Source: Candidatus Woesearchaeota archaeon (GTDB taxonomy: Archaea; Nanobdellota; Nanobdellia; Woesearchaeales; GW2011-AR9). From it: a DNA stretch of 64,000 nt. Positions 5,216 through 63,124 of the stretch are shown one piece after another. The number at the start of each line of letters is the position of its first letter. Positions within the stretch are counted from its first letter, which is position 1. The notes under the pieces are model-generated. The model saw only the letters and a list, made by a program, of their open reading frames with translations. It was not told the DNA's origin and did not search any database. Position numbers and translations under genes: made by a program. The stretch spans positions 4,144 to 68,143 of the forward strand of contig JAZDQB010000028.1 of assembly GCA_043797205.1 (NCBI GenBank). Reading direction: 5' to 3'.

Positions 5216-5305
5216 GCCTCTGTAGCTTAACGGTGGAGCGACTGCTTCGTATATACTTAATAAAGAAAGAGCAGTAGGCTGAGGGTTCAAATCCCTCCAG
5301 AGGCT
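5216..5305 (+). tRNA. tRNA-Thr(CGU) with an 18-nt intron at the canonical 37/38 position
   Basis: Cloverleaf read by eye: acceptor GCCTCTG/CAGAGGC, D arm GCTT-AACGGTG-GAGC, anticodon stem ACTGC/GCAGT with loop TTCGTA[TATACTTAATAAAGAAAG]A, T arm GAGGG-TTCAAAT-CCCTC, discriminator T. A T-run follows. Confidence 0.8.
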
Positions 5306-17900: not shown

Positions 17901-18968
17901 TTATTTTAGTGATCTATTTATTTCAATAGTAGAAATATCGTGCGGAAATGTCTTTTCGTATTTATCAATCACTTTTTGTCTTAAAATATAAGTATTGTAA
18001 TGGTGAGCGTACGCCAACCATCCTTCAAATACAGCATAAATTTGGTCGTAGTAAATTTTATTTAGCTCGAATTCTTCTTGCAATAAGAATATCTTCCGTT
18101 CCAGTTTTGGTACGTTTCCTTTTTTTAATAAGCGATGGAATGGGAAAATACGCGCACCTAAAAAAGTTATTCCTTGTTTGATAGAACGAATAGATGTTTT
18201 GTGTGGATGCAAGTGTAATTTTAAGTTAATAGTTAAGAAATTACTGATTTCTTGTCGATAAACTCGGAGCTTATCCTTATTGTTATCTAAAATTACAAAA
18301 TCATCTACGTAACGCAAGTAATATCTAATTTTTAATTTCCTTTTGATAAATTGATCCAGCTCATTCAAGTACACGTTCGCTAAGAATTGGGAAGTTAAGT
18401 TGCCCAAAGGCATTCCTTTATCAAAAGAATGGTTTCTTAATATTTTTCTAATTAACCACATCACTTTTTTATCTTTGATCTTTTTTTCAAGAATACGAAT
18501 TAAGATCGAATGATTTACTTCTTCGAAATAATGCTTTATATCTGCCTTTAACACGAATGTGTTTATGATATGGTTATTAGAAACTATCCTTGAAAAGGAT
18601 TCAAATCTTTTTATCGCTTTAAGAGTACCTTTTCCCTTCCGGTTGGCATAAGAATCATAAATGAAAGAAGTTTCAAAAATAGGTTCAATAAGATTACACA
18701 AAGCGTGATGTATCACTCTATCCCGAAAATGAGCTTTACTAATCTTTCTGGTTTTGGGATCGCGTACAATAAAGGTTTGCAATGGTTTTGGTTGATAAGC
18801 GTGTAAGAGCAGTTCTGTTCTAAGCAAAGAAAGATTATTTTGTAAATCCTTCTCAAATTCCAATACATAAGGCTTTTGCGTTTTATGTTTTCTCGCTTTC
18901 TTGTAAGCAAGATATAAATTATCTTCGCTGCATAATTTATCCCATAAATTACGATAAGTCTTCATGAA
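17901..18968 (-). CDS. DGR reverse transcriptase
   Basis: RT motifs include YVDDFVIL (YxDD) and LGNLTSQ, the DGR-type motif-4 signature I/LGxxxSQ. It lies immediately downstream of the TR. The track ORF extends to 19073 only because the TR is read in frame; the true start is probably MKTYRNLW. Confidence 0.85.
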   Translation of the reverse strand, partial: FMKTYRNLWDKLCSEDNLYLAYKKARKHKTQKPYVLEFEKDLQNNLSLLRTELLLHAYQPKPLQTFIVRDPKTRKISKAHFRDRVIHHALCNLIEPIFETSFIYDSYANRKGKGTLKAIKRFESFSRIVSNNHIINTFVLKADIKHYFEEVNHSILIRILEKKIKDKKVMWLIRKILRNHSFDKGMPLGNLTSQFLANVYLNELDQFIKRKLKIRYYLRYVDDFVILDNNKDKLRVYRQEISNFLTINLKLHLHPHKTSIRSIKQGITFLGARIFPFHRLLKKGNVPKLERKIFLLQEEFELNKIYYDQIYAVFEGWLAYAHHYNTYILRQKVIDKYEKTFPHDISTIEINRSLK

Positions 18969-18991
18969 CAAAAATCCTAGCCCAGCCAAGG

Positions 18992-19082
18992 TTATTCCGA
19001 GAAAACGGGCATTGTTGTTGAGATTGTTGTTGCCATTAAGGTTGTTGTTATGGTTGTTGCCCAAGACCAGCAAGCGCCCGCC
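18992..19082 (-). repeat. DGR template repeat (TR), ~91 nt
   Basis: Coding-strand sequence GCGGGCGCTTGCTGGTCTTGGGC(AAC AAC CAT AAC AAC AAC CTT AAT GGC AAC AAC AAT CTC AAC AAC AAT)GCCCGTTTTCTCGG. Twelve AAY codons. Identical to the VR except at adenines. Coordinates +/-2 nt. Confidence 0.85.
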
Positions 19083-19280
19083 TCTGTGTAGCTCTTTTAT
19101 CGTTATGCCACTGCTGCTTCGGTCTTTCCTTGCGTACTAGAGGTCGCAGCTGTATTTATCCTATTAGAACGTGTCTAATCGAAAGATTTTATGATGAGTC
19201 GCCTCAATCGTGATGAAAGAGCATGTAACCTTAGTATTGGCGGCATAACCGCTGTGGCTAAGATGAAGAAAAGTAAAGAA

Positions 19281-20087
19281 TTATCCTTTATATTGTTTTC
19301 TCAAATCACGACGTACTGCAGCTTCGTATTGCTTACGAACTGCTTCAGGAACGAATCTTTGTGAAGAAGCAAAAACCGTATTTAAGACCGTTTCTAAACT
19401 AGGAACAGTTCCTTTTTGCACTTCGCGCCCTGCGGGCGCACTCTCACCTACGACGCCTATCCGACGTACCCCGAGAAAACGGGCATTGCCGTTGAGAACG
19501 TAGTCGCCAACAAGGTTGCTGCCATGGCCGTAGCCCAAGACCAGCAAGCGCCCGCGAGGTTCTTCCGCCAGATCATCGCTATGCCAAATCCCAATATTGT
19601 CTCCATAAACTTTACGATGTTTAGCTAAATATCTCTTGGCAATATCTTCTCCACCTAAAAAAGGAATGGTTTGGGGATGCTCTAAAGCCGCATCAACAGA
19701 AATAACTTCAGAAGTAGATCTCTTCAAAACATCATAATCAACTTTGAAAACTTTACCATCGTCAATACGACCAGCTAAAGCATCAAATTCTTCTTGAGGA
19801 AAAGGTCCGGCACCATTTCGATGATGTTCTCGAGCATATTTTAGTTGTTCTGAATCATTCCAAGAAGTTTGGTCCTGAACGTAAAGAACGATCTTGCTGC
19901 CCCCTTTAGTAGTTCCCGTAATTCTTAAACTAGGAGTAGTCCACCAATTGGTAAACAAGTAGCTGTCATTCTTAGCTTTGATTCTTTTTTCAGCCAGTTC
20001 GGGCATATAAACAGCATCGTGAGCAACTTGACAAGCACGCAGAGCTTCTTCCATTATAGCATTGTAAAAAGGTTGATTTTTATTCAT
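19281..20087 (-). CDS. DGR target protein (variable protein), fold unknown
   Basis: 268-aa ORF containing the VR at about residues 178-207 (...GRLLVLGYGHGSNLVGDYVLNGNARFLGV...). No signal peptide. Confidence 0.8.
   Translation of the reverse strand: MNKNQPFYNAIMEEALRACQVAHDAVYMPELAEKRIKAKNDSYLFTNWWTTPSLRITGTTKGGSKIVLYVQDQTSWNDSEQLKYAREHHRNGAGPFPQEEFDALAGRIDDGKVFKVDYDVLKRSTSEVISVDAALEHPQTIPFLGGEDIAKRYLAKHRKVYGDNIGIWHSDDLAEEPRGRLLVLGYGHGSNLVGDYVLNGNARFLGVRRIGVVGESAPAGREVQKGTVPSLETVLNTVFASSQRFVPEAVRKQYEAAVRRDLRKQYKG
19425..19439 (-). other. GC-rich hairpin ~27 nt downstream of the VR 3' end (candidate DGR target-recognition hairpin)
   Basis: GCGCCC-GCA-GGGCGC on the coding strand (6-bp GC stem, 3-nt loop), in the position where DGR VR-proximal hairpin/cruciform elements are found. 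Confidence 0.5.
19466..19555 (-). repeat. DGR variable repeat (VR)
   Basis: 90-nt match to the TR with 16 mismatches. Every mismatch is at a TR adenine (AAC->TAC, GGC, GGC, AGC; AAT->GTT; AAC->GAC, TAC; AAT->GTT; AAC->GGC; GGA->GGG; ATA->GTA). Confidence 0.85.
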
Positions 20088-20312
20088 TGTTTCACCGAAG
20101 CTAACAAAAAGGGAGGTAATATTTAAATGTTTTGCTACTTTAAAGTTGTAATCCAGAAAGGAGCTGTTGGGAAAAAGCCACTACCCACTGGTCACAAGAA
20201 ATAAGAAAACTATCTTATTTCTGTGCAGAAATGAAGAGTTCCCCTTCATTTCTTGCAAGTCCGGCTAAGGTATATAAACCACCTCTTCTTTAAGCTTAAT
20301 CAGGTGGTTGAA

Positions 20313-20705
20313 ATGGAAAACGCTTTAGCCGTATTTGAAGGTAAGAAAATTAGAAAAACTTGGCATAATAATGAATGGTGGTTTGTAATCGAAGATGTAG
20401 TTCAAGCTTTGACCGATTCTAATGACCCTAAGCAGTATATCAATAAAATGAGACAAAGAGATGAAATTTTGTCTCAAGGGTGGGTACAAATTGTACATAC
20501 CTTTTTGGTAGATACTTCTGGTGGTAAGCAGAATATGAATTGTTCTAATACAGAAGGATTATTTCGTATAATCCAGTCTATTCCTTCTATAAAAGTTGAA
20601 CCTTTCAAATTATGGTTAGCTAAAGTGGGTTATGAACGTGTTCAAGAGATTCAGAATCCGGAATTAGCTCAAGATAAAGTTAAACGATATCCATTATTTT
20701 GTTAA
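20313..20705 (+). CDS. Bro-N domain protein (phage/virus antirepressor-like)
   Basis: ALAVFEGKKIRKTWHNNEWWFVIEDVVQAL...NTEGLFRIIQSIPSIKVEPFKLWLAKVGYERV matches the Bro-N architecture. SD AGGTGGT lies before MENALAV. Confidence 0.65.
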   Translation: MENALAVFEGKKIRKTWHNNEWWFVIEDVVQALTDSNDPKQYINKMRQRDEILSQGWVQIVHTFLVDTSGGKQNMNCSNTEGLFRIIQSIPSIKVEPFKLWLAKVGYERVQEIQNPELAQDKVKRYPLFC

Positions 20706-20870
20706 TTACAACTAGAAAAAAGAGGTAAGGTCAGAACTCTTAACAAAAACTTTTCCCTTTGAACAAGGTCGTCAGACTCCTACCTAAAAGTTTTTTGTGA
20801 GTTCTGCCAAACTACCTCCTTTTCCGAATACTCTAGGCTTTAATGCTTGAAAAGCTTAGAGGTGAAATAA

Positions 20871-21503
20871 ATGGAAAATAAATTAAAATTAGCAGAAATC
20901 GTTGGAATAATGCTTGGTGACGGATGTTTGTATAAAGAAAAGCGACGTAATCGTTATCAAACAACTATTTGTTTTCATAAAAAAGAAACAGATTACTTAA
21001 GTCATGTTAAGATACTATTTGAAGATTATTTTAAATACAAATTTTACGTAACTGAAATAGCGCATGAAATGTTGCTTAGAAACGGTAGTTTAGTAGTAGG
21101 AGAAAAGTTAATCAGCTTTGGATTATATCCTGGAAGTAAGATTGATAACAAAGTAGTAATCCCTTCTTGGATATTTAGTAATAAAGAATTCATTAAAAGA
21201 ACAGTGAGAGGACTTTTTGATACGGATGGATGCGTTTACAAGAAATATGATAGATATGCTCAGATTGTCTTTAAATTTGGATGCAAAGAAACTACTAACT
21301 CTTTAAGAGAAGCTATAATTATTTTGGGTTTTAATCCAACTAAAACCGAGAAGGGATATAATAAAGCGAAGCACACCTTTTTTCATAAATTCTATCTATC
21401 CAGACAAGGTGAAATTAAGAAGTTCTTTCAAAAGATAGAACCAAAAAATCCAAAGCATGTTAAAAGGTATGAGAAAATAAGAGGTGGGGACGCCGCGATT
21501 TGA
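20871..21503 (+). CDS. free-standing LAGLIDADG homing endonuclease (double-motif)
   Basis: Two LAGLIDADG motifs: IVGIMLGDGCL and VRGLFDTDGCV. SD AGAGGTGA upstream. Confidence 0.8.
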   Translation: MENKLKLAEIVGIMLGDGCLYKEKRRNRYQTTICFHKKETDYLSHVKILFEDYFKYKFYVTEIAHEMLLRNGSLVVGEKLISFGLYPGSKIDNKVVIPSWIFSNKEFIKRTVRGLFDTDGCVYKKYDRYAQIVFKFGCKETTNSLREAIIILGFNPTKTEKGYNKAKHTFFHKFYLSRQGEIKKFFQKIEPKNPKHVKRYEKIRGGDAAI

Positions 21504-21659
21504 ACGCGGATCCGAAGCTAGCTTCAGGAAAGTTTTGTCATCGCCGAAGCTCAACTCTCCAATTCTGGAGGCTCCTATTTTGGTCAGTGACTTTTAAATC
21601 ACTTCTAGCCAAGATGCACCCAGATGCCGCAAGGCAATGTGGATTATACTACGTCCCCA
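21485..21659 (-). tRNA. tRNA-like element: candidate intron-containing tRNA (tentatively anticodon CCA/Trp, at least 2 introns), or a tRNA-derived remnant
   Basis: Minus strand: 5' GGGGACG-TA... and 3' ...CCGCG-TTCAAAT-CGCGG-CGTCCCC-A-CC give a perfect 7-bp acceptor and T arm. A possible anticodon arm GGAGC-CTCCAG[45-nt intron]A-GCTTC fits. The D-arm region only folds if a further ~50-nt intron is assumed. Confidence 0.4.
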
Positions 21660-21713
21660 CAATCTACAAAACAAGAGAATTGTTTATTAAGTTTTTGCTC
21701 TTTTTACTCAAAA

Positions 21714-22802
21714 ATGATCGAATTAGACGGATCTCATGGAGAAGGCGGCGGTGCCCTAGTTCGAGTAGCTCTTGCTCTCAGCACCCTCACCGAACAAGAA
21801 TTTAAAGTAACCAACATCCGTGCCAACCGCCCCGAACCGGGATTAAAAGCACAACATCTGGAAGCGATTAACGCTCTGAAACAGATCTGTGATGCCGAAA
21901 CTAATGAGATTAAGATTGGCACTACAGAATTATATTTCAAACCAGGAAAGATTAAACGCGGAATTTATGAAATAGATATCGGTACCGCCGGCAGCATCAG
22001 CTTAGTATTACAAGCATTAATTCTACCCTGCATGTTCGCTCCGGGAAAAGTGACTTTAAAGATTAAAGGAGGAACTTGCGGTAAATGGCAAGCTTCCGTT
22101 TATTACTTACAAAATATTTTACTTCCCCATCTGCAGAAATTTGTCGATAAGATTGAATTAAAGATCTTCAAGCCCGGATATTATCCGCAAGGAGGAGGAG
22201 AAGTGCAACTGGAAATTACTCCAAGATTTAACATTCGTAAATACCAGTATGTAGAAGATTTCCTGAAAGAATTGAAAGTGCCACGGATTAAATTATTAGA
22301 AGCAGATAAATTAGAGCAAATTCGTGGAGTGGTCAATGTTTCTTCAGAACTGCAAGAAAAAGAGGTAGGTGAAAGAATTAAGAAAACAGCAGAGATGGCT
22401 CTAAGAAAATATGATGTTCCGATAAATGTCCGCTCCGAATACGCCAAAACTCTTAATGTTGGTGGAGAGATAGTATTATGGGCTTTATTCAGTGAAAAAG
22501 GTAAAGTTGATTCGGATAATCAAGTAATTATAGGAGCAGATGCTTTAGTAGAAAAGAACAAGAGTTCTGAACAAGTGGGAAAGGAAGCGACAGAAGCCTT
22601 AAGCAAAGAAATTAATAAAAAGAATGTGACTGACCATTACTTATTAGACCAATTAATTCCTTTTATGGCCTTGCTTCCCGGATCAGAAGTCCAAACCACC
22701 GAAATTAGCGAGCATGCTTATACTAATATGCATGTATGCAAACAATTCGTTCCCATCACCTTTAAAGTGGTTAAGGGAAAGATTAAGGTGGAATTAAGAT
22801 AG
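21714..22802 (+). CDS. rtcA: RNA 3'-terminal phosphate cyclase
   Basis: MIELDGSHGEGGGALVRVALALSTLTEQEFKVTNIRANRPEPGLKAQH matches the RtcA N-terminal signature. Start moved to the internal Met. Confidence 0.85.
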   Translation: MIELDGSHGEGGGALVRVALALSTLTEQEFKVTNIRANRPEPGLKAQHLEAINALKQICDAETNEIKIGTTELYFKPGKIKRGIYEIDIGTAGSISLVLQALILPCMFAPGKVTLKIKGGTCGKWQASVYYLQNILLPHLQKFVDKIELKIFKPGYYPQGGGEVQLEITPRFNIRKYQYVEDFLKELKVPRIKLLEADKLEQIRGVVNVSSELQEKEVGERIKKTAEMALRKYDVPINVRSEYAKTLNVGGEIVLWALFSEKGKVDSDNQVIIGADALVEKNKSSEQVGKEATEALSKEINKKNVTDHYLLDQLIPFMALLPGSEVQTTEISEHAYTNMHVCKQFVPITFKVVKGKIKVELR

Positions 22803-27455: not shown

Positions 27456-28514
27456 TTAAACCTTAATTCCATGAACACTAAAGTGCGTCCTTACTCCCTT
27501 ATATTTTTTTAGTGCATCTTCCATCTTGGAAGGATTCTTCTTTTGCAAGCTGGCAGTTTCATGCACATCAATAAAGCCTACTTGTTTGCTCTGTGATTCT
27601 TCTAACAACAATTCTAAAAACTTCTGTTCTTCTAAGAATTTGTTCTCAGAAACCATCTTTTTCAGCAAATCAGAATTAGATAATGTTCCAGTCCATAATG
27701 GACCGGAGAAAATAAATTCTGCTCCACACCTACATTTTTCCTTATTATAAATAGATGTCTTAAAATTCAAACATTTTTTACAGAACAAAAAGTATTGGTG
27801 CTGTTTCAAGAGAGTATCGCAATCATCTTTGCCCCGACGATTCTGAAAATAAACCCTAAAATAATGGTCTTTGTGATAAGCAAGTATCGGCACAAGAGCT
27901 TTATCAAATTGTATCCCTTGCAATTGAATTTTTCTAATTAATATTCTTAATCCCAATTCATGCATCAGATAATTCTTGAAAGAAGTAGCCCAATATTTTC
28001 TTTTAGTAACCGAAGGGTAAGTTCCAGTTAATGCTGCTGTATCGGTAGCAGTAACTGCAATAATTCCTCCTCGAGAGATTCTGGCTACGGCTGTGGCTAG
28101 AAAAGGATTGGGAGAACCAAAAGGATCTATTTCGATATAATCAAAGCCAATCTGTTCCTGCATAAAGAGGTTGGCTTCTTTATTGAAGATAAAACACTTA
28201 TTTTTATCTAGCTTTACTTTATTCAGCTTAGCGTTCTCTAAAAAGATTTTACTAAAATCATCTTTCATATCGTTAACGTACAGATGTTTAATCTTATTCT
28301 TCTTCAACTCTTTCAAGAATCGTAAAGAGCGAATTCCACTTCCGGCCAAAGGATCGCAGAGGTTCATCTCAATATTTTCTAACGAATTAAGTAAGGTAAT
28401 AGAAATATTGCGATTAGAAGCCATTACTGGATTATAGAACACATCCATCTCTTGAGAAACAATCTTAGGCAGTTCTGCTTTGATTTTAATGGAATGTTCG
28501 GTAGTTAAAGTCAT
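27456..28514 (-). CDS. trm1: tRNA (guanine(26)-N2)-dimethyltransferase
   Basis: FYNPVMASNRNISI and the SAM-binding region LCDPLAGSGIRSLRF are Trm1 signatures. Confidence 0.85.
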   Translation of the reverse strand: MTLTTEHSIKIKAELPKIVSQEMDVFYNPVMASNRNISITLLNSLENIEMNLCDPLAGSGIRSLRFLKELKKNKIKHLYVNDMKDDFSKIFLENAKLNKVKLDKNKCFIFNKEANLFMQEQIGFDYIEIDPFGSPNPFLATAVARISRGGIIAVTATDTAALTGTYPSVTKRKYWATSFKNYLMHELGLRILIRKIQLQGIQFDKALVPILAYHKDHYFRVYFQNRRGKDDCDTLLKQHQYFLFCKKCLNFKTSIYNKEKCRCGAEFIFSGPLWTGTLSNSDLLKKMVSENKFLEEQKFLELLLEESQSKQVGFIDVHETASLQKKNPSKMEDALKKYKGVRTHFSVHGIKV

Positions 28515-37525: not shown

Positions 37526-38461
37526 ATGTCCACTCAAATCTTCATCAAGAAGGAAGCCCAAGGAATATACGGAAAATATCCTAATGAAAGAACCCCAGAA
37601 GAATTGATTAAATGCGGCATCGTCAATTTAGACAAGCCTAAAGGACCCACTTCTCATCAAGTTTCTGATTACGCGCAAAGGATTCTGGGAATAACTAAAG
37701 CTGGCCATTCCGGAACTTTGGATCCGCAAGTGACTGGAGTGCAGCCGATTGGATTGGGAAGAGCCACCAGAATTACGGAATTCTTGCTCACTGCGCCCAA
37801 AGAATATGTTGGGATTATGCATTTGCATAAGTTGATAGAAGAATCCTTATTGCAAGCAGGGGTAAAAAAGTTTATCGGAAAGATAAAACAACTTCCGCCC
37901 ATCAAAAGTGCGGTGAAAAGGGAAGTTAGGATTAGAGAGATTTATGAATTTGAACTTTTAGAAATAAAAGGACAGGAAGTTCTCTTCCGCGTCAAATGCC
38001 AGGCCGGAACTTACATCCGAAAGTTGTGCCATGACTTGGGTCAAGAACTAGGTATCGGAGCGCACATGGCTGAATTAAGAAGAACTCAAGCCGGCCCCTT
38101 TACCGAGAAAGATCATCTAGTTACCTTAAACGACTTGGATGATGCTTATCATTTTTATAAGGAAGAAAACAACGATAAATTCATTAAATATTGTTTGCAG
38201 CCGGCTGAATCTGCTCTAGTATATCTCCCAAAATGCTGGATATTAGACAGCGCCATTATCAGTATTACTCATGGCCGAGATTTAGCTATCCCCGGAGTCT
38301 GTAAATTAGAAAATTTCCGTAAAGAAGAAGTAGTCGCCATCCTCAGTTTGAAAGGAGAATTGGTAGCCATGGGAGAAGCCCAAATGTCGGCAGTAGAAAT
38401 TAATACCAAAGATAAGGGTATTGCTATCAAAGTGAAGAAAGTGTTTATGGAGACGGAATAA
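37526..38461 (+). CDS. cbf5: H/ACA RNP pseudouridine synthase Cbf5 (TruB family with PUA domain)
   Basis: GIVNLDKPKGPTSHQV...GHSGTLDPQVTGV is the TruB catalytic motif with its Asp. The C-terminus is PUA-like. Confidence 0.85.
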   Translation: MSTQIFIKKEAQGIYGKYPNERTPEELIKCGIVNLDKPKGPTSHQVSDYAQRILGITKAGHSGTLDPQVTGVQPIGLGRATRITEFLLTAPKEYVGIMHLHKLIEESLLQAGVKKFIGKIKQLPPIKSAVKREVRIREIYEFELLEIKGQEVLFRVKCQAGTYIRKLCHDLGQELGIGAHMAELRRTQAGPFTEKDHLVTLNDLDDAYHFYKEENNDKFIKYCLQPAESALVYLPKCWILDSAIISITHGRDLAIPGVCKLENFRKEEVVAILSLKGELVAMGEAQMSAVEINTKDKGIAIKVKKVFMETE

Positions 38462-47844: not shown

Positions 47845-48021
47845 ATGAACCCCTCGCCAAGGGGCCAGCGCCGAGCGGAAGCTTCAAGTCACTCCGCTAA
47901 AGCTTCGTTCGTGACTTTGCTGCGCAAAGCTTCGTAAGAGGACTAGCTTCCCGTTCACCTTAGTACTTTAGTAAATGTTGGAACGGGTCGGCGCGAGAGG
48001 GTTTCATATCCCTGCCCTGTT
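47845..48021 (+). ncRNA. structured GC-rich ncRNA of unknown family (~175 nt)
   Basis: GC-rich island in an AT-rich intergenic region. TATA box GATATATAAATTT about 25 nt upstream. Terminal helix ATGAACCCCTCGCC / GGCGCGAGAGGGTTTCAT. Internal stems include AGCGG/CCGCT, GTCAC/GTGAC and CCCGTT/AACGGG. Ends in CTGTTTTTT. Confidence 0.4.
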
Positions 48022-49419: not shown

Positions 49420-49675
49420 TGTTTAGCATCCTCCGGTCAACGCTACTCTTATTTCACTTCCGGCAGACAAGAGGGTTGCCTCCCAAACTTTAACTAAAGT
49501 TTGAACAAAGGTAATGGGACATAAAGTCCCATATCGCGACCCGCTGTGTACTAGCAAGGTCGCGCTTGAGGGCTTCATGCCCTCAGTTGCATACCAGATG
49601 TGCATAACCATCTGACGGAGAACGTCTGCTCTCGAGGAAAACATTCAACAGCGTTGAAGATGCTAAACAAATAAT
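49420..49675. ncRNA. structured ncRNA of unknown family (~255 nt), strand unresolved
   Basis: No credible ORF; the 73-aa track ORF is GC-island noise. An ~18-bp terminal helix pairs GTTTAGCATC...GTCAACGCT with AGCGTTGA...GATGCTAAAC. At least 5 internal hairpins (TGGGAC/GTCCCA, GAGGGC/GCCCTC, GACG/CGTC and others). GC content well above the flanks. Confidence 0.4.
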
Positions 49676-57836: not shown

Positions 57837-57976
57837 ATGACCCTCTTTTCATTTGAGGAGAAAGACGTATTTAAACATTTATATCGTTGAGTCGTATATT
57901 GTTAAATATATGATTTTCATATATAACGATTACTCTCGAAACGTTTTTAAATAAAGTTCTAAAATAGGTTTAAGGT

Positions 57977-58136
57977 GGGCCCATGGTCTAGCGGTTATCT
58001 TCCTAAGGAAGACTGCATATGATGTCTCCCTTACATGCACAGCTTAGCTGGGCGACCAGCACCGCAGTGCTGAGTACGGAGAATGTCCCCGGTTCGAAAC
58101 GCAGCAATAACTGCCACGAAAGTCCGGGTGGGCCCA
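57977..58136 (+). tRNA. candidate multi-intron tRNA (tentatively Val, anticodon UAC; introns in the D-loop region, at 37/38 and in the T-loop)
   Basis: GGGCCCA...TGGGCCC-A acceptor. T arm CCCGG-TTCGAA[24-nt insert]T-CCGGG restores TTCGAAT. Anticodon arm TCTCC-CTTACA[41-nt insert]C-GGAGA. D stem GTCT with AGCGGTTA loop. A TATA-like TTTTTAAATAAA lies about 30 nt upstream. Confidence 0.45.
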
Positions 58137-58156
58137 TTCATTTTTCTTTAATATAA

Positions 58157-58486
58157 CTAACTTATTCCTTTAATTAATAAATTAACCGAATAGAGAAGAA
58201 GAATCGTTTCAAGCACCAATAGAATACAAAAGAGAAGCTGCATAGCAATATATCCATTCATAACCAAAGCCATATCTTGCTTAGCAAAAACAATATCTCT
58301 CTCGTTGGTGGTATTCGTTACACTCATCCTTTCTTCAAGAAATGGATCAATATTAGCTCGGTTAAAAGTAGAGAAAACCCCTCGGTCGGAAAAATATTCC
58401 AAAGTAAGATAGATTCCAGCAATGGTTATGAGCAAAAAGACTATGCCTAAAACAAGTTGCAATCTTTTGACCGCCTCTTTTTTCAT
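58157..58486 (-). CDS. small membrane protein
   Basis: Two TM helices. Confidence 0.4.
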   Translation of the reverse strand: MKKEAVKRLQLVLGIVFLLITIAGIYLTLEYFSDRGVFSTFNRANIDPFLEERMSVTNTTNERDIVFAKQDMALVMNGYIAMQLLFCILLVLETILLLYSVNLLIKGIS

Positions 58487-58581: not shown

Positions 58582-59340
58582 ATGGCTGATGCGGTAGCCC
58601 AGACAACTCAAGAAGAGGTAATGGATTTACTTCTAGAACAGGATGATGTTACTTGGCGAACTATTCTGTTAGACTTAGTCAAAAACGAGCAGATGAATCC
58701 CTGGGACGTTAATTTAACTTTGCTTACTAGAAAATATCTGCAGACTATCAAAGAGATGCAGCAGCATGACCTAAAAATATCTGGAAAAATCTTATTAGCG
58801 GCGGCACTGCTGCTGCGCATCAAATCTACACACTTTATCGACAAGGATCTAGCGGAATTTGATCAATTGTTATACCAAACCGGAGAGGAAGACGAAAATT
58901 GGGATAATCTAACTGAAGAACAAAAAGAGCAACGCGTAAAAGAGAAATATAAATTAATTCCTCGCAATCCTCAACCCCGCAGCAGAAAAGTTTCTATCCA
59001 TGACCTGATTGAAGCCTTGCAGAAAGCGATGGAATCTAAAAAAAGAATCCTGGCCCAGCAACGTCCGGTAAAATACGTTATTCACAAAAAAGGGATGGAT
59101 ATTGTGGAAGTTATTTATGATTTGTACCATAAGATTATGTATTATTCTAATAAGGAAGAGAATCAGGACAAAAGAATTACTTTTACTCAGCTTTTGCCGC
59201 CCAAATCTGGAAAGCAGGAGAAAGCCTTTACTTTCATCCCTTTATTACATTTAGAAAACCTGCAGAAGATTGAGACCGAACAGAAGAAACCTTTTGATGA
59301 GATTTATATTACGCTACTGGGGAAGAAAGTGGCTAAATAA
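58582..59340 (+). CDS. scpA: segregation and condensation protein A (kleisin)
   Basis: EEVMDLLLEQDDVTWRTILLDLVKNEQMNPWDVNLTLLTRKYL is the ScpA N-terminal signature. Confidence 0.75.
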   Translation: MADAVAQTTQEEVMDLLLEQDDVTWRTILLDLVKNEQMNPWDVNLTLLTRKYLQTIKEMQQHDLKISGKILLAAALLLRIKSTHFIDKDLAEFDQLLYQTGEEDENWDNLTEEQKEQRVKEKYKLIPRNPQPRSRKVSIHDLIEALQKAMESKKRILAQQRPVKYVIHKKGMDIVEVIYDLYHKIMYYSNKEENQDKRITFTQLLPPKSGKQEKAFTFIPLLHLENLQKIETEQKKPFDEIYITLLGKKVAK

Positions 59341-59420: not shown

Positions 59421-61289
59421 ATGAAGTCTACTAAAGAAATTAAGGTTCCGGATAAGATTGTCGACCAGGTTATCGGACAGGATGAAGCCGTTAATACTAT
59501 CAGAAAAGCGGCTTTACAGCGTCGGCACGTCCTTCTAATCGGCGATCCCGGTACGGGAAAAAGCATGCTGGGATTAGCTTTAGCGGAACTGCTGCCCCAA
59601 TCAGAATTGAAAGACTTGATTGCCTATCAAAATCCTAATGACGAAAATAATCCTTCCATCAAAGAAGTCAAAGCTGGAACGGGCAGAGATGAAGTCAAGC
59701 TGCGTTTATTGGACGGCAGCAAAGGCAACCGCAACAATAATTTCTTGATGTTTTTTGTAGCTATTTTAACTATGATTGCTCCGTGGTGGGTAAGATATCA
59801 TTACAAATCCGATTTAATGTTCACCGCTTTCTTTTTGGGAGGAATGCTTTTCTTAGCTGCCTTCGCCATTATGTTAGGAATGGGACAGAGAATGTTCCGC
59901 GCTAATGCCGAAATCACTCCGAAACTAATTGTCGACAACTTCGGTCGGAAAACTGCACCTTTTTTTGACGCCACGGGAGCCCATGCTGGAGCTTTACTCG
60001 GTGACGTCTTGCACGATCCTTTCCAATCAGGAGGTTTAGGCACTCCCGCCAATCAGCGTGTCGTAGCGGGAATGATCCATAAAGCTCACCTAGGGGTATT
60101 GTTTATTGATGAAATCGCTACTTTACATCCCCGTACTCAGCAAGAATTATTATCCGCTTTACAAGAGAAGAAATTTCCTATTACCGGTCAATCAGAAAGA
60201 AGCGCCGGAGCGATGGTTAGAACTGAACCTGTTCCGTGCGACTTTGTATTAGTTGCTGCCGGAAATTACGAGACGGTGAAAGATATGCATCCGGCGTTGA
60301 GATCGAGAATCAGAGGTTATGGATATGAAGTGTACATGAATGAAACTATGATCGACACGAAAGATAATCGTTTGAAGATTGCCCGTTTTGTAGCGCAAGA
60401 AGTTAAAAAGGAAAACGGCAAAATTCCCCATTTCTCAGAAGAGGCAGTTAATGTTATTATCGAAGAAGCACGCAAGCGAGCCAATCGCAAAGGACATTTA
60501 ACTCTTTACCTGCGCGGATTAGGTGGACTAGTACGCGCCGCCGGAGATCTAGCTAAAGAAGACAAAGCAGAACTAGTATTAGAGAAACACGTCAAAGAAG
60601 CTAAAAAGTTAGCCCGTACTTTAGAACAGCAGATGGCTGATAAATATATCGAACGCAAGAAAGAGTATGAAGTGATTGTAACTTCGGGAAGAAGAGTGGG
60701 CCGCGTGAACGGCTTGGCCGTGATTGGAAGTGGAGCAGCCTTCTCCGGAATCCTTTTACCGATTGAAGCAGAAGTTACCGCCGGAGGAAAGAAAAATCAG
60801 ATTGTGGCTACCGGAAAATTAGGCGAGATCGCTAAAGAAGCCATCATTAATGTTTCTGCTATCATCTTAAAATATTTCGGAGAAGATATTGTCGAAACCA
60901 AAGATATCTTTGTACAATTCCTGCAAACTTATGAAGGAGTGGAAGGAGATTCCGCTTCCATTGCTGTCGCTACCGCCATTATCTCTGCCTTGAAAAATAT
61001 TCCTATCAAACAAGAAATTGCTATGACTGGAAGTTTATCGGTACGGGGAGAAGTCCTGCCCGTAGGTGGAGTCTCTTCCAAAGTCGAAGCAGCCATTGAA
61101 GCCGGAGTGAAAACAATTATTGTCCCAAAAAGCAATTTGCAAGATATTGTTGTTGATGCCGACAAGCTAAAGAAAGTGACTATTATACCCGTAGTAAGTT
61201 TGGAAGAAGTTCTCGAGTTTGCTTTAGATTGGGAAGGAAATGAGAAGTTAAGAGATCAGATTGTTAATGGAAAGAAGAAGAGGAAGTAA
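59421..61289 (+). CDS. lonB: archaeal membrane-bound ATP-dependent Lon protease (LonB)
   Basis: AAA+ Walker A GDPGTGKS. Two TM helices inserted in the ATPase domain. C-terminal protease domain with [12 protein letters not shown] and the catalytic Ser. Confidence 0.9.
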
Positions 61290-61293
61290 AAAA

Positions 61294-61632
61294 TTATTTC
61301 AATGCTTCAATAAATTTATCCAGGCTAGAGATCGAAGCGGCTTGGACTTTCATTATGTCTTCAAGTTTCTTCAACGTGCCAGAATCTGTTATAATCATTT
61401 TGCTGATCTGCATTTGTGCTAGATGATCTGTTGATCGCTCCTTTAAATAAGACACTGCCTCCACTACTTCTCCTACAGAATGTCCTAAAGATTCTGCCTG
61501 TTCAAATCCTTTGATGTTTACGGAAACATAATACTTAGCATCCAAAAAGTCTTCTGGAACTAATAATCCCACGGAATGGAACAACTTCACTTCGTCTTCC
61601 ACATCAATTTTTCTTCCATACATTTCTATCAT
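61294..61632 (-). CDS. hypothetical protein (shares identical leader and first codons with the next gene)
   Basis: SD AGAGGA before the ATG of MIEMYGRK. The track ORF starts at an in-frame TTG inside the repeat. Confidence 0.45.
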   Translation of the reverse strand: MIEMYGRKIDVEDEVKLFHSVGLLVPEDFLDAKYYVSVNIKGFEQAESLGHSVGEVVEAVSYLKERSTDHLAQMQISKMIITDSGTLKKLEDIMKVQAASISSLDKFIEALK

Positions 61633-61681
61633 TTTTTTATCCTCTTGTTTTAAGCCCAAGGAAGGCAGTTATTTGATTTAT
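61629..61681. repeat. 53-bp perfect direct repeat, copy A
   Basis: TCATTTTTTTATCCTCTTGTTTTAAGCCCAAGGAAGGCAGTTATTTGATTTAT is identical to 62023..62075. Confidence 0.8.
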
Positions 61682-61705
61682 ATTAATTGCAAGAAGTGTT
61701 AAAAA

Positions 61706-62026
61706 TTATTTTTTCTTACTGGGATTTAAGATGGCATCATCAAGTGTTCTTTGATTAACGGCTTGATATTCAAATTCTCCTGCACAATCCCTATAATTTC
61801 TCAAGTATTGGGTTTGGCTTTCATTAACTAATAGTCTTCTTCCATCAAAATCAACCATAATCCAAGGTTTATCGTGTTGGTATCCACTATTTAATCCAAA
61901 AATCAATCTTTCTGCGACTTGAACTAAACTATCAATTTTTAGTTGAGTATGAGCTAATGCACTCATATGCATTCCACCAATATGGCGAATTCCTTCATAT
62001 TTAACACAAACATTGATTTGGGTCAT
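61706..62026 (-). CDS. hypothetical protein
   Basis: Same 53-bp leader as 61294..61632; begins MTQINVCVKYEG. Confidence 0.45.
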   Translation of the reverse strand: MTQINVCVKYEGIRHIGGMHMSALAHTQLKIDSLVQVAERLIFGLNSGYQHDKPWIMVDFDGRRLLVNESQTQYLRNYRDCAGEFEYQAVNQRTLDDAILNPSKKK

Positions 62027-62075
62027 TTTTTTATCCTCTTGTTTTAAGCCCAAGGAAGGCAGTTATTTGATTTAT
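62023..62075. repeat. 53-bp perfect direct repeat, copy B
   Basis: Identical to 61629..61681. Confidence 0.8.
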
Positions 62076-62170
62076 GATTAGTAATAGCATTAATAACATA
62101 ATTAAATCTTCTGAGCGAAATATTTATAAAAAAGCCCATTTTATCTATTAATTGGTAAAAAGGATAAAAA

Positions 62171-63124
62171 ATGAACTTAGATATTAAAGATAAGCGGATA
62201 TTATATGCGCTGGATAAGAATGCTAGGATTAGTTATAGTCAGTTAGCCAGAAAAACCCAGTTAAGCCCCGAAGTGGCTTTATATCGAGTAAAGAAGTTGG
62301 AACAATCCGGTATCATCACTCAATATCAAACCTCCGTCAACTATTGGAAATTAGGATTGATCCATTTCAAGATCTGCTTAGTTTTCAATGGTATTTCTTT
62401 GCAAGCCGAAGAAGAATTGTATGTTAAACTGAAAGAAATACCTCAAATAATTTGGATAGCTAAATGTCAGGGAGAATATGATTGCTTGCTTTCTTGTACA
62501 GTTAATAATATGGAAGAATTGGATTCTGTTAAAGATAAAATCTTAGCGCTAGCTAACAAACATCTCCTCAATAAGACTATTTCACTCTCTTCGAAAATAT
62601 GGTCTTTTCCAAGAAGATATCTTACCGCCCAAAAAGAAGAATTACTCGAAAAAGAGGACCACCATCCGGTAGAATTAGACCGATTAGATATAGAATTGTT
62701 GAGAATATTATCTTTAGAAGGAAGATTGTCGGTGGTCCAGATTGCAAAAAAATTAAAGTCCACTATTAAAATTATCACCAACAGAATAAAAAAATTACAG
62801 CAAAGTAAGACCATCAACAATTACCGCTTGGTGATTGATTACGAAAAATTAGGAGTTAAGTTGTTTAAAACCTTCATCTCTTTAAAAAACCCAGAAAATA
62901 ACAGATTGAGACAACTAATTACTTATCTTAATACCAATAAACATCTGGTTCATAATCTCAAAGTGATTGGTGCTTGGGACTTAGAGCCAGAATTTGAATT
63001 TGAAAAAGAAGAGGAATTCCAGAAAGAGATCCAAAAGATAAAAAACAAATTTTCAGATATCATACAAAAGATTAGTGTTATTAATGTTATTAAAGAGTAT
63101 AAGTACACTTTCTTCTACAAGTAA
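62171..63124 (+). CDS. tandem (duplicated) Lrp/AsnC family transcriptional regulator
   Basis: Two HTH_AsnC modules (DIKDKRILYALDKNARISYSQLARKTQLSPEVALYRVKKLEQSGII and LDRLDIELLRILSLEGRLSVVQIAKKL), each followed by a RAM-like domain. Confidence 0.7.
   Translation: MNLDIKDKRILYALDKNARISYSQLARKTQLSPEVALYRVKKLEQSGIITQYQTSVNYWKLGLIHFKICLVFNGISLQAEEELYVKLKEIPQIIWIAKCQGEYDCLLSCTVNNMEELDSVKDKILALANKHLLNKTISLSSKIWSFPRRYLTAQKEELLEKEDHHPVELDRLDIELLRILSLEGRLSVVQIAKKLKSTIKIITNRIKKLQQSKTINNYRLVIDYEKLGVKLFKTFISLKNPENNRLRQLITYLNTNKHLVHNLKVIGAWDLEPEFEFEKEEEFQKEIQKIKNKFSDIIQKISVINVIKEYKYTFFYK

Follow-up and report, generated by a model that had tools for sequence, protein, structure and literature searches.

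The element at positions 57977–58136 (+) of the 64,000-nucleotide (nt) Woesearchaeota contig segment analyzed here, which we call the window, is very probably a tRNA-Val(UAC) gene of a Woesearchaeota archaeon, in which four exons are separated by three bulge–helix–bulge (BHB) introns within 160 nt. The introns are placed in the D loop between tRNA positions 20 and 21 (20/21), at the canonical anticodon-loop site (37/38), and in the T loop (59/60). On the whole window, ARAGORN did not call the locus and Rfam gave no match to it at the gathering threshold. The gene structure was resolved by comparison with orthologous genes, which at the level of sequence provides the decisive evidence for both the exons and the exact junctions.

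The LonB protein of the window is 100% identical to a protein of a metagenome-assembled genome (MAG) labelled 'Candidatus Woesearchaeota archaeon', and its relatives form a dense series from 99% down to 79% identity. Judged by its genes, the host is a Woesearchaeota (DPANN) archaeon, and its habitat is apparently groundwater, as L019/L020, its nearest relative, was assembled from groundwater metagenomes (the L numbers are our labels for loci). The tRNA gene is followed by scpA (58582–59340) and lonB (59421–61289) and preceded, on the opposite strand, by an open reading frame (ORF) of 445 amino acids (aa) and a methyltransferase/RIO-kinase fusion; the flanking genes are archaeal. The order of methyltransferase-kinase, an ORF of ~449 aa, the tRNA gap, scpA, and lonB is kept in relatives with LonB identities as low as 87%; in L017 and L018 it is partly rearranged. 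In six related genomes, an orthologous tRNA gene occupies the gap upstream of scpA, and a further set of genes (L007–L014) was found by an exon-pattern scan of species-representative genomes (Table 1). The introns were placed with a script that fixed the sites at 20/21, 37/38, and 59/60 and assumed a mature length of 73 nt; it brought every orthologue to 73 nt with 20 of the 21 cloverleaf pairs, while a few genes from the metagenome scan described below were mis-solved or left unsolved, and one of them, L073, was first scored with a 98-nt 'T intron'.

Table 1. Intron lengths (nt) at the three sites of the tRNA-Val(UAC) gene in the window (W) and its orthologues; 0 denotes contiguous exons
Locus	Found by	LonB identity to window	D intron	Anticodon intron	T intron
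W	window		22	41	24
L019/L020	synteny	99%	42	0	24
L001	synteny	92%	19	19	42
L015/L016	synteny	91%	0	42	30
L004	synteny	89%	19	0	0
L002 (= L006)	synteny	87%	23	0	0
L017	synteny	82%	15	16	33
L007	exon-pattern scan		0	0	42
L008	exon-pattern scan		0	0	42
L010	exon-pattern scan		0	0	52
L009	exon-pattern scan		0	38	41
L011, L012–L014	exon-pattern scan		0	0	0

The predicted mature sequence is identical in the window gene, L019, L002, and L007, although the four genes carry four different sets of introns. Among these genes with identical exons, L019 is contiguous at 37/38, L002 at 37/38 and 59/60, and L007 at 20/21 and 37/38, and thus, for each insert of the window gene, one or more of them are uninterrupted at its exact predicted junction. 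An earlier annotation of the window, made from its letters only (hereafter the first-pass annotation), had proposed that removal of 24 nt restores the T loop and that a 41-nt insert interrupts the anticodon arm; both proposals are borne out by the contiguous 59/60 and 37/38 junctions of L002. A homologue of intron 2 with the same ends was found in L015. L019/L020, although from other samples, carry an identical intron 3, and the introns at this site in L001, L015, L017, and L007–L010 are different ones. Three introns are present in three of the seven distinct syntenic orthologues, and while the Thermoproteales remain the best-known carriers of three-intron tRNAs, as the first-pass annotation had stated, its view of the arrangement as rare does not extend to this lineage.

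The orthologues also allowed the cloverleaf itself to be assessed. Over 10 distinct spliced sequences, 95.2% of the cells of the cloverleaf are paired, and compensatory changes are seen at six pairs (7–66, 12–23, 27–43, 29–41, 49–65, and 52–62). The pair 12–23, which spans the D intron, is CG in six and UA in four of the 10 sequences. The observed covariation score was reached in 0 of 500 shuffles, and the signal collapsed when the registers were slid. The intronless L011 and L012 were called tRNA-Val(tac) by ARAGORN and matched the Rfam tRNA family with 62.7 and 69.9 bits, respectively; the orthologues with any non-canonical intron were all missed by ARAGORN and Rfam, L004 being miscalled as tRNA-Ser. 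One of the genes from the exon-pattern scan, L009, lies on a contig labelled 'uncultured Methanosarcinales' (CAYYLB010000044.1), which points either to T-loop introns outside DPANN or to a mis-binned contig.

Removing the three introns at the coordinates of Table 2 gives a 73-nt product, GGGCCCAUGGUCUAGCGGUUAUGAUGUCUCCCUUACACGGAGAAUGUCCCCGGUUCGAAUCCGGGUGGGCCCA. ARAGORN calls this in silico spliced form tRNA-Val(tac), in agreement with the anticodon UAC (Val) initially proposed, and did not correctly call the unspliced form or partly spliced forms that retained a non-canonical intron. The spliced tRNA keeps 20 of the 21 cloverleaf stem pairs and shows the standard loop signatures (U8, A14, G18G19, U33, UUCRA T loop, and the discriminator). 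Valine tRNAs are identified by A35 and C36 of their NAC anticodon and by the discriminator A73. Both the anticodon UAC and A73 can be read from the sequence, by which the predicted tRNA identity is valine with anticodon UAC.

The splice junctions were studied with a scan for BHB motifs, consisting of a 4-bp helix H between two 3-nt bulges, with the cut after the second bulged base (marked below with an arrow). The H helix is 4 bp and in register at every junction, and the outer helices h/h′ measure 2/6, 5/4, and 5/0 bp for introns 1, 2, and 3, respectively. Intron 1 combines H = GCGG/CUGC with h′ = UCUUCC/GGAAGA and a 2-bp h, and its bulges are UU↓A on the 5′ and AU↓A on the 3′ side. Intron 2 forms a strict hBHBh′ motif in which h is the anticodon stem, H = CUUA/UGAG, h′ = GCAC/GUGC, and the bulges are CA↓U and UA↓C. 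The 3′ half of intron 3 is canonical, with the T stem as h, H = UUCG/CGAA, and a bulge AG↓U, and its 5′ splice site is relaxed, lying within a 4 × 2 internal loop beside the helix GCAG/CUGC. When the letters of the introns were shuffled, an in-register 4-bp H appeared in 1.5–3% of the trials per intron, and all three H helices were jointly in register in 0 of 20,000 trials.

The minimum free energy (MFE) structure of the unspliced precursor has −66.9 kcal/mol (z = −4.36). It holds the D-intron helices and a T arm extended by UUCG/CGAA, and contains an extended anticodon-arm hairpin with a register slightly off the canonical H helix. As the splice helices of the D intron and the T loop co-form in this structure, there appears to be no obligatory order of splicing for at least these two.

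The first-pass annotation had described a 160-nt GC-rich element with repeated 8-mer ends and a 7-bp acceptor stem plus A, and all this is as described. The 8-mer TGGGCCCA is found at both ends of the element (57976–57983 and 58129–58136), the acceptor stem is GGGCCCA/UGGGCCC followed by the discriminator A73, and the GC content is 56% vs. the window average of 38%. In the DNA, the T arm reads CCCGG-TTCGAA(24 nt)T-CCGGG and the anticodon arm TCTCC-CTTACA(41 nt)C-GGAGA, and exon 1 is the same as in the intronless D arm of L007 and L012–L014. The TATA-like element TTTTTAAATAAA, noted earlier as lying about 30 nt upstream, has its center ~27 nt from the first base of the tRNA and presumably acts as the promoter. 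It sits within a block, CTCGAAACGTTTTTAAATAAAGTTCTAAAATA, that is kept in the orthologues: it is nearly the same in W, L001, L002, L004, L015, and L019 (100% identical between W and L019) and precedes the tRNA gene in all syntenic orthologues except the most distant, L017. On the other side, the T-rich run TTTTTCTTT directly follows the gene as a likely terminator, and the orthologues are likewise trailed by a T-rich stretch (TCATTTT...). CCA is not encoded in the gene.

Table 2. Parts of the tRNA-Val(UAC) gene and its putative signals, in window coordinates
Feature	Coordinates	Strand	Composition or basis
Archaeal TATA-box-like element, TTTTTAAATAAA	57944..57955	+	sequence; center ~27 nt upstream of first tRNA base
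Exon 1, tRNA positions 1–20	57977..57996	+	GGGCCCA acceptor 5′ strand, U8 G9, D-stem GUCU, D-loop AGCGGUU
Intron 1, D-loop 20/21, 22 nt, AUCUUCCUAAGGAAGACUGCAU	57997..58018	+	BHB scan
Exon 2, tRNA positions 21–37	58019..58035	+	A21, D-stem 3′ strand UGAU, G26, anticodon-stem UCUCC, C32 U33, U34 A35 C36, A37
Intron 2, canonical 37/38, 41 nt	58036..58076	+	BHB scan
Exon 3, tRNA positions 38–59	58077..58098	+	C38, GGAGA, variable loop AUGUC, T-stem CCCGG, T-loop UUCGAA
Intron 3, T-loop 59/60, 24 nt, ACGCAGCAAUAACUGCCACGAAAG	58099..58122	+	BHB scan
Exon 4, tRNA positions 60–73	58123..58136	+	U60, T-stem CCGGG, acceptor UGGGCCC, A73
T-rich run, TTTTTCTTT, likely archaeal oligo-T terminator	58141..58149	+	sequence; directly after the tRNA gene

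We considered several other explanations for the element. It seems quite unlikely that the locus is a decaying tRNA pseudogene whose three junk inserts are never removed and which gives no working tRNA. Such decay would fit the failure of ARAGORN and Rfam to recognize the gene, the imperfect BHB of the T-loop insert, and the presence of mobile-element genes in the window (reverse transcriptase and LAGLIDADG endonuclease), but a decaying gene is not expected to have exons 100% identical to those of orthologues with fewer introns, to keep 20 of the 21 cloverleaf pairs, or to have a splice helix in register at all three inserts. The compensatory substitutions in the h′ helices of the orthologous D introns and the conservation of the promoter block argue in the same direction, as does the 1.56-Mb contig of L002/L006, in which the exon pattern matches just the syntenic, intron-containing gene.

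Certain observations nevertheless weigh against a functional three-intron gene. The T-loop intron has neither the canonical 5′ bulge nor the h′ helix (the strict-register h′ is 0 and the motif a relaxed hBH), and a strict α4-type EndA, the archaeal tRNA-splicing endonuclease, might fail on it. The D stem carries a U13–U22 mismatch and a G10–U25 pair; the mismatch is universal among the orthologues, including the intronless copies recognized by Rfam. A Pfam scan of 50 window ORFs, with the larger ORFs left unscanned, found no EndA (tRNA_int_endo) domain, and tblastn with a Methanocaldococcus EndA, a weak test, gave no match; the gene for the endonuclease must lie in another part of the genome. 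The genome may hold another, uninterrupted tRNA-Val(UAC) gene outside the 64 kb and, finally, the transcription and splicing of the gene are matters that we infer.

The introns could also have been brought together by assembly or binning, the contig being a chimera of different tRNA alleles. The source is a MAG and alleles with differing introns co-occur in similar groundwater samples, but the exons are all present and in colinear order, the independently assembled contigs L019 and L020 have an identical T intron with identical flanks, the anticodon intron has its ends in common with that of L015/L016, and three-intron alleles are also found in L001, L017, and L123, so that we consider an artefact very improbable. 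There is hardly any chance that the element belongs to another class of structured RNA, for example a fragment of RNase P RNA or a noncoding RNA with tRNA-like ends: it is long and GC-rich and GAAAGUCCGGG resembles the P4 region of RNase P, but with relaxed filters no Rfam family matches 57900–58220 on either strand at E ≤ 10, and the orthologues reduce to a plain 73-nt tRNA. The same search justifies the doubt that the first-pass annotation had cast on the RNase P likeness, and the assignment to another family, which it had named as a refutation, did not appear. At the gathering threshold, the whole window likewise gave no match to RNase P RNA. Two further candidates were rejected, a split or permuted tRNA gene on the grounds that the exons lie side by side in colinear order over just 160 nt, and a self-splicing group I or II intron on the grounds that the inserts are 22, 41, and 24 nt and match no Rfam intron family.

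A narrower question concerns the D arm, for which the first-pass annotation had postulated a third short insert. The insert is real and consists of one BHB intron of 22 nt. In the D stem, GUCU pairs with UGAU, a 3′ strand located downstream of the intron, and not with the AGAC inside the insert. Retaining AGAC would require four inserts in the gene, with micro-introns at 57998–58009 (12 nt) and 58015–58024 (10 nt) around the internal AGAC, and give a perfect D stem GUCU/AGAC and a complementary DNA reading ...GCGGUUAAGACU... This model has a negligible probability and was ruled out by the BHB geometry and the orthologues. Neither micro-insert has a BHB, compared with an H of 4 bp and an h′ of 6 bp in the 22-nt intron; the D introns of L004, L001, and L019 contain no internal AGAC-like strand; L007 and the intronless genes show GCGGUUAUGAUG or GCGGUUAUGAC uninterrupted; and the pair 12–23 covaries in the single-intron register. 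As the only model with a BHB, and the one with which the orthologous D introns, the uninterrupted genes, and the covariation agree, the single-intron model is taken as correct. The orthologous D introns retain the H helix GCGG/CUGC, and their h′ varies by compensatory substitutions (UCUUC/GAAGA, CGCC/GGCG, CGCA/UGCG, and UC/GA).

Given the single-intron D arm and three introns in total, the expression of the gene can be outlined on the basis of established archaeal tRNA biology (PMC4090602, PMC4033280, PMC5829648). The TATA-type promoter would drive transcription and the oligo-T run would end the transcript. In the precursor, every exon–intron boundary would be exposed in a short bulge beside a 4-bp helix, EndA would cut within the bulges, and an RtcB-type ligase would join the four exons. 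CCA would be added after splicing, as none is encoded in the gene, and the predicted product before this addition is a 73-nt tRNA with A73 and the anticodon UAC. From the relaxed 5′ site of the T-loop intron, the splicing endonuclease of Woesearchaeota would be expected to have a broad specificity. The window contains two tRNA-modification genes, one for Trm1 of the m2,2G26 methyltransferase family (27456–28514, −) and one for a Cbf5/TruB pseudouridine synthase with a PUA domain (37526–38461, +); G26 and U55, their usual targets, are present in the spliced tRNA-Val. In the red alga C. merolae, the T-loop intron is removed before the modification of U55 (PMC9602550).

The comparison of closely related genes gives a view of intron turnover. 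W and L019, with LonB proteins 99% identical, have identical exons, promoters, and T introns, but L019 does not have the 41-nt anticodon intron and carries a different, 42-nt D intron, the 5′ part of which resembles the type found in L001 and L004. A metagenome scan queried with exon 1 yielded at least 59 distinct Val tRNA genes, at least 28 of them with one or more introns at the same three sites, the contig of the window not being among the matches listed. Introns at these sites are common in this tRNA family, and among at least 12 orthologues each of the three sites varies independently of the others. We tentatively suggest that BHB introns of Woesearchaeales tRNAs might be gained, lost, and swapped on the time-scale of strain divergence, a view that we regard as possible rather than probable.

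A potential route for the gain of T-loop introns is seen in a series of related alleles. Another tRNA-Val(UAC) gene is represented by three alleles, of which L115 has D and anticodon introns only. L073 (5096–5343, −) has the introns of L115 and, after the gene, an insert of ~95 nt, beyond which the 3′ end of the tRNA (UCCGGGUGGGCCCA) is repeated together with the trailer, and in L123 a homologous insert forms a 55-nt intron within the T loop. A similar insert of ~100 nt is found after the tRNA of L004 (3016–3115), with a repeated GGGCCCAGT. The L115/L073/L123 series suggests that T-loop introns can be formed when an insertion or duplication at the tRNA's 3′ half is followed by a deletion, and it resembles the intron gain by insertion and then recombination proposed for Caldiarchaeum. 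A search for paralogous copies of the three introns in the window and all the loci found only the orthologous T intron of L019/L020, and transposition between tRNA genes is therefore unsupported here. Elsewhere in the same region, a segment of ~1.8 kb between lonB and hef (ERCC4/HhH), at 61294–63124, is absent from L019; it holds two small ORFs with a shared N terminus, MGLKQEDKKM, and a double winged-helix regulator of the Lrp/AsnC type.

The tRNA-Val gene shows every testable defining feature of multi-intron archaeal tRNAs, and its layout, though known, is not a common one. Up to three BHB introns per tRNA, the recorded maximum, have been documented, mainly in Thermoproteales (PMC4033280, PMC8450103). 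The systems of that order (Pyrobaculum, Thermofilum, and Caldivirga; work of Sugahara et al. 2008 and of Fujishima et al. 2010, summarized in PMC4033280, PMC4090602, and PMC8450103) have, as here, relaxed BHB motifs at some sites; they are also hard for standard finders and give evidence of rapid intron gain. On the other hand, Thermoproteales are hyperthermophilic crenarchaea with an (αβ)2 EndA that has the crenarchaeal loop, whereas our gene comes from a DPANN genome with 38% GC in the window and an apparent origin in groundwater.

Within DPANN, non-canonical tRNA introns and a broad-specificity EndA are known from ARMAN-2, which has an ε2 EndA (PMC3239211, PMC3488258). In its accessible text, Kaneta et al. 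2018 (PMC5829648) link α4 EndAs with an L3 loop to increased tRNA gene disruption in DPANN, report an analysis of one Woesearchaeota MAG with tRNAscan-SE 2.0, and note incomplete DPANN tRNA sets. That text gives summary proportions and, as far as it extends, contains no three-intron gene of Woesearchaeota, junctions verified with orthologues, or polymorphism between strains. The searchable literature yielded a single paper on tRNA disruption in a Woesearchaeota genome, in summary form only.

More distant systems share parts of the arrangement. C. merolae, like W, has D, anticodon, and T introns in one tRNA gene with BHB-like junction motifs, but the gene is eukaryotic and nuclear, differs in isotype and in the exact intron positions, and is processed by the Sen complex. 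The system described in PMC3293823 (2012) likewise has natural-population alleles differing in intron number, with tRNA fragments near the gene, to which W and L019 as well as the L115/L073/L123 series can be compared; it belongs to another phylum, however, and no recombinase-bearing element was seen beside the tRNA gene of W. Split and permuted tRNAs (Nanoarchaeum equitans, Caldivirga, and Thermofilum; PMC3218864, PMC3491384) use the same machinery of BHB, EndA, and ligase, but unlike them, W has all four of its exons adjacent to each other, in colinear order, and on a single strand.

The gene may bear on the apparent gaps in archaeal tRNA sets. With tRNAscan-SE, 96 of 208 complete Nanobdellota genomes had all 20 tRNA types (bioRxiv 10.64898/2026.05.13.725050), and split tRNAs or loss have been suggested for the incomplete sets of DPANN (PMC5829648; bioRxiv 10.64898/2026.05.13.725050). 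If the turnover of introns is general, heavily interrupted genes would explain a part of the tRNAs missing from DPANN and Nanobdellota. Such genes are a candidate for a simpler explanation than split tRNAs or loss, as far as can be judged from ARAGORN and Rfam. BHB models are based on Crenarchaeota, Euryarchaeota, and Thaumarchaeota (PMC8450103), and a three-intron gene with junctions fixed by orthologues could be used to train them. Furthermore, one locus with independent presence and absence of introns at three sites constitutes a natural experiment on the gain and loss of archaeal tRNA introns.

The only tRNA of the 64 kb found by ARAGORN and Rfam is a tRNA-Arg(TCG) interrupted by one canonical intron of 20 nt (5216–5305, +). 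Another tRNA-like element, 174 nt long and probably the other multi-intron candidate of the first-pass annotation, is located at 21485–21658 (−), between a LAGLIDADG ORF and rtcA. It has an acceptor GGGGACG/CGUCCCC plus A, an intact T arm CCGCG-UUCAAAU-CGCGG, and a fold z score of −4.0, and was missed by ARAGORN and Rfam. Removing candidate BHB introns from it and applying ARAGORN gave ~20 conflicting isotype solutions, and brute-force splicing was thus not considered evidence alone; for the tRNA-Val gene we relied on the orthologues. The adjoining gene encodes RtcA, an RNA 3′-terminal phosphate cyclase (21624–22802, +), with a Pfam match from residue 39 and a mechanically defined ORF start that overlaps the tRNA-like element.

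Among the other GC-rich parts of the window, an intergenic island at 47846–48020 (+) is preceded by a TATA-like ATATATAAATTTAA and followed by a T6 run; it showed no Rfam match at E ≤ 1 and an ordinary fold (z = −1.4). For the intergenic island at 49515–49640, Rfam gave a chance miRNA match only, far below the threshold. A third GC-rich stretch (66%), at 19388–19597, lies within the ORF 19281–20087, in the region of a mobile-element gene cluster that spans 17901–21503. The cluster includes a reverse-transcriptase ORF (17901–19073, −) with an RT-16 RNA directly upstream of it (RF03019, 53.7 bits; 19083–19263, −), an ORF with a Bro-N domain (20253–20705, +), and a LAGLIDADG endonuclease ORF (20871–21503, +).

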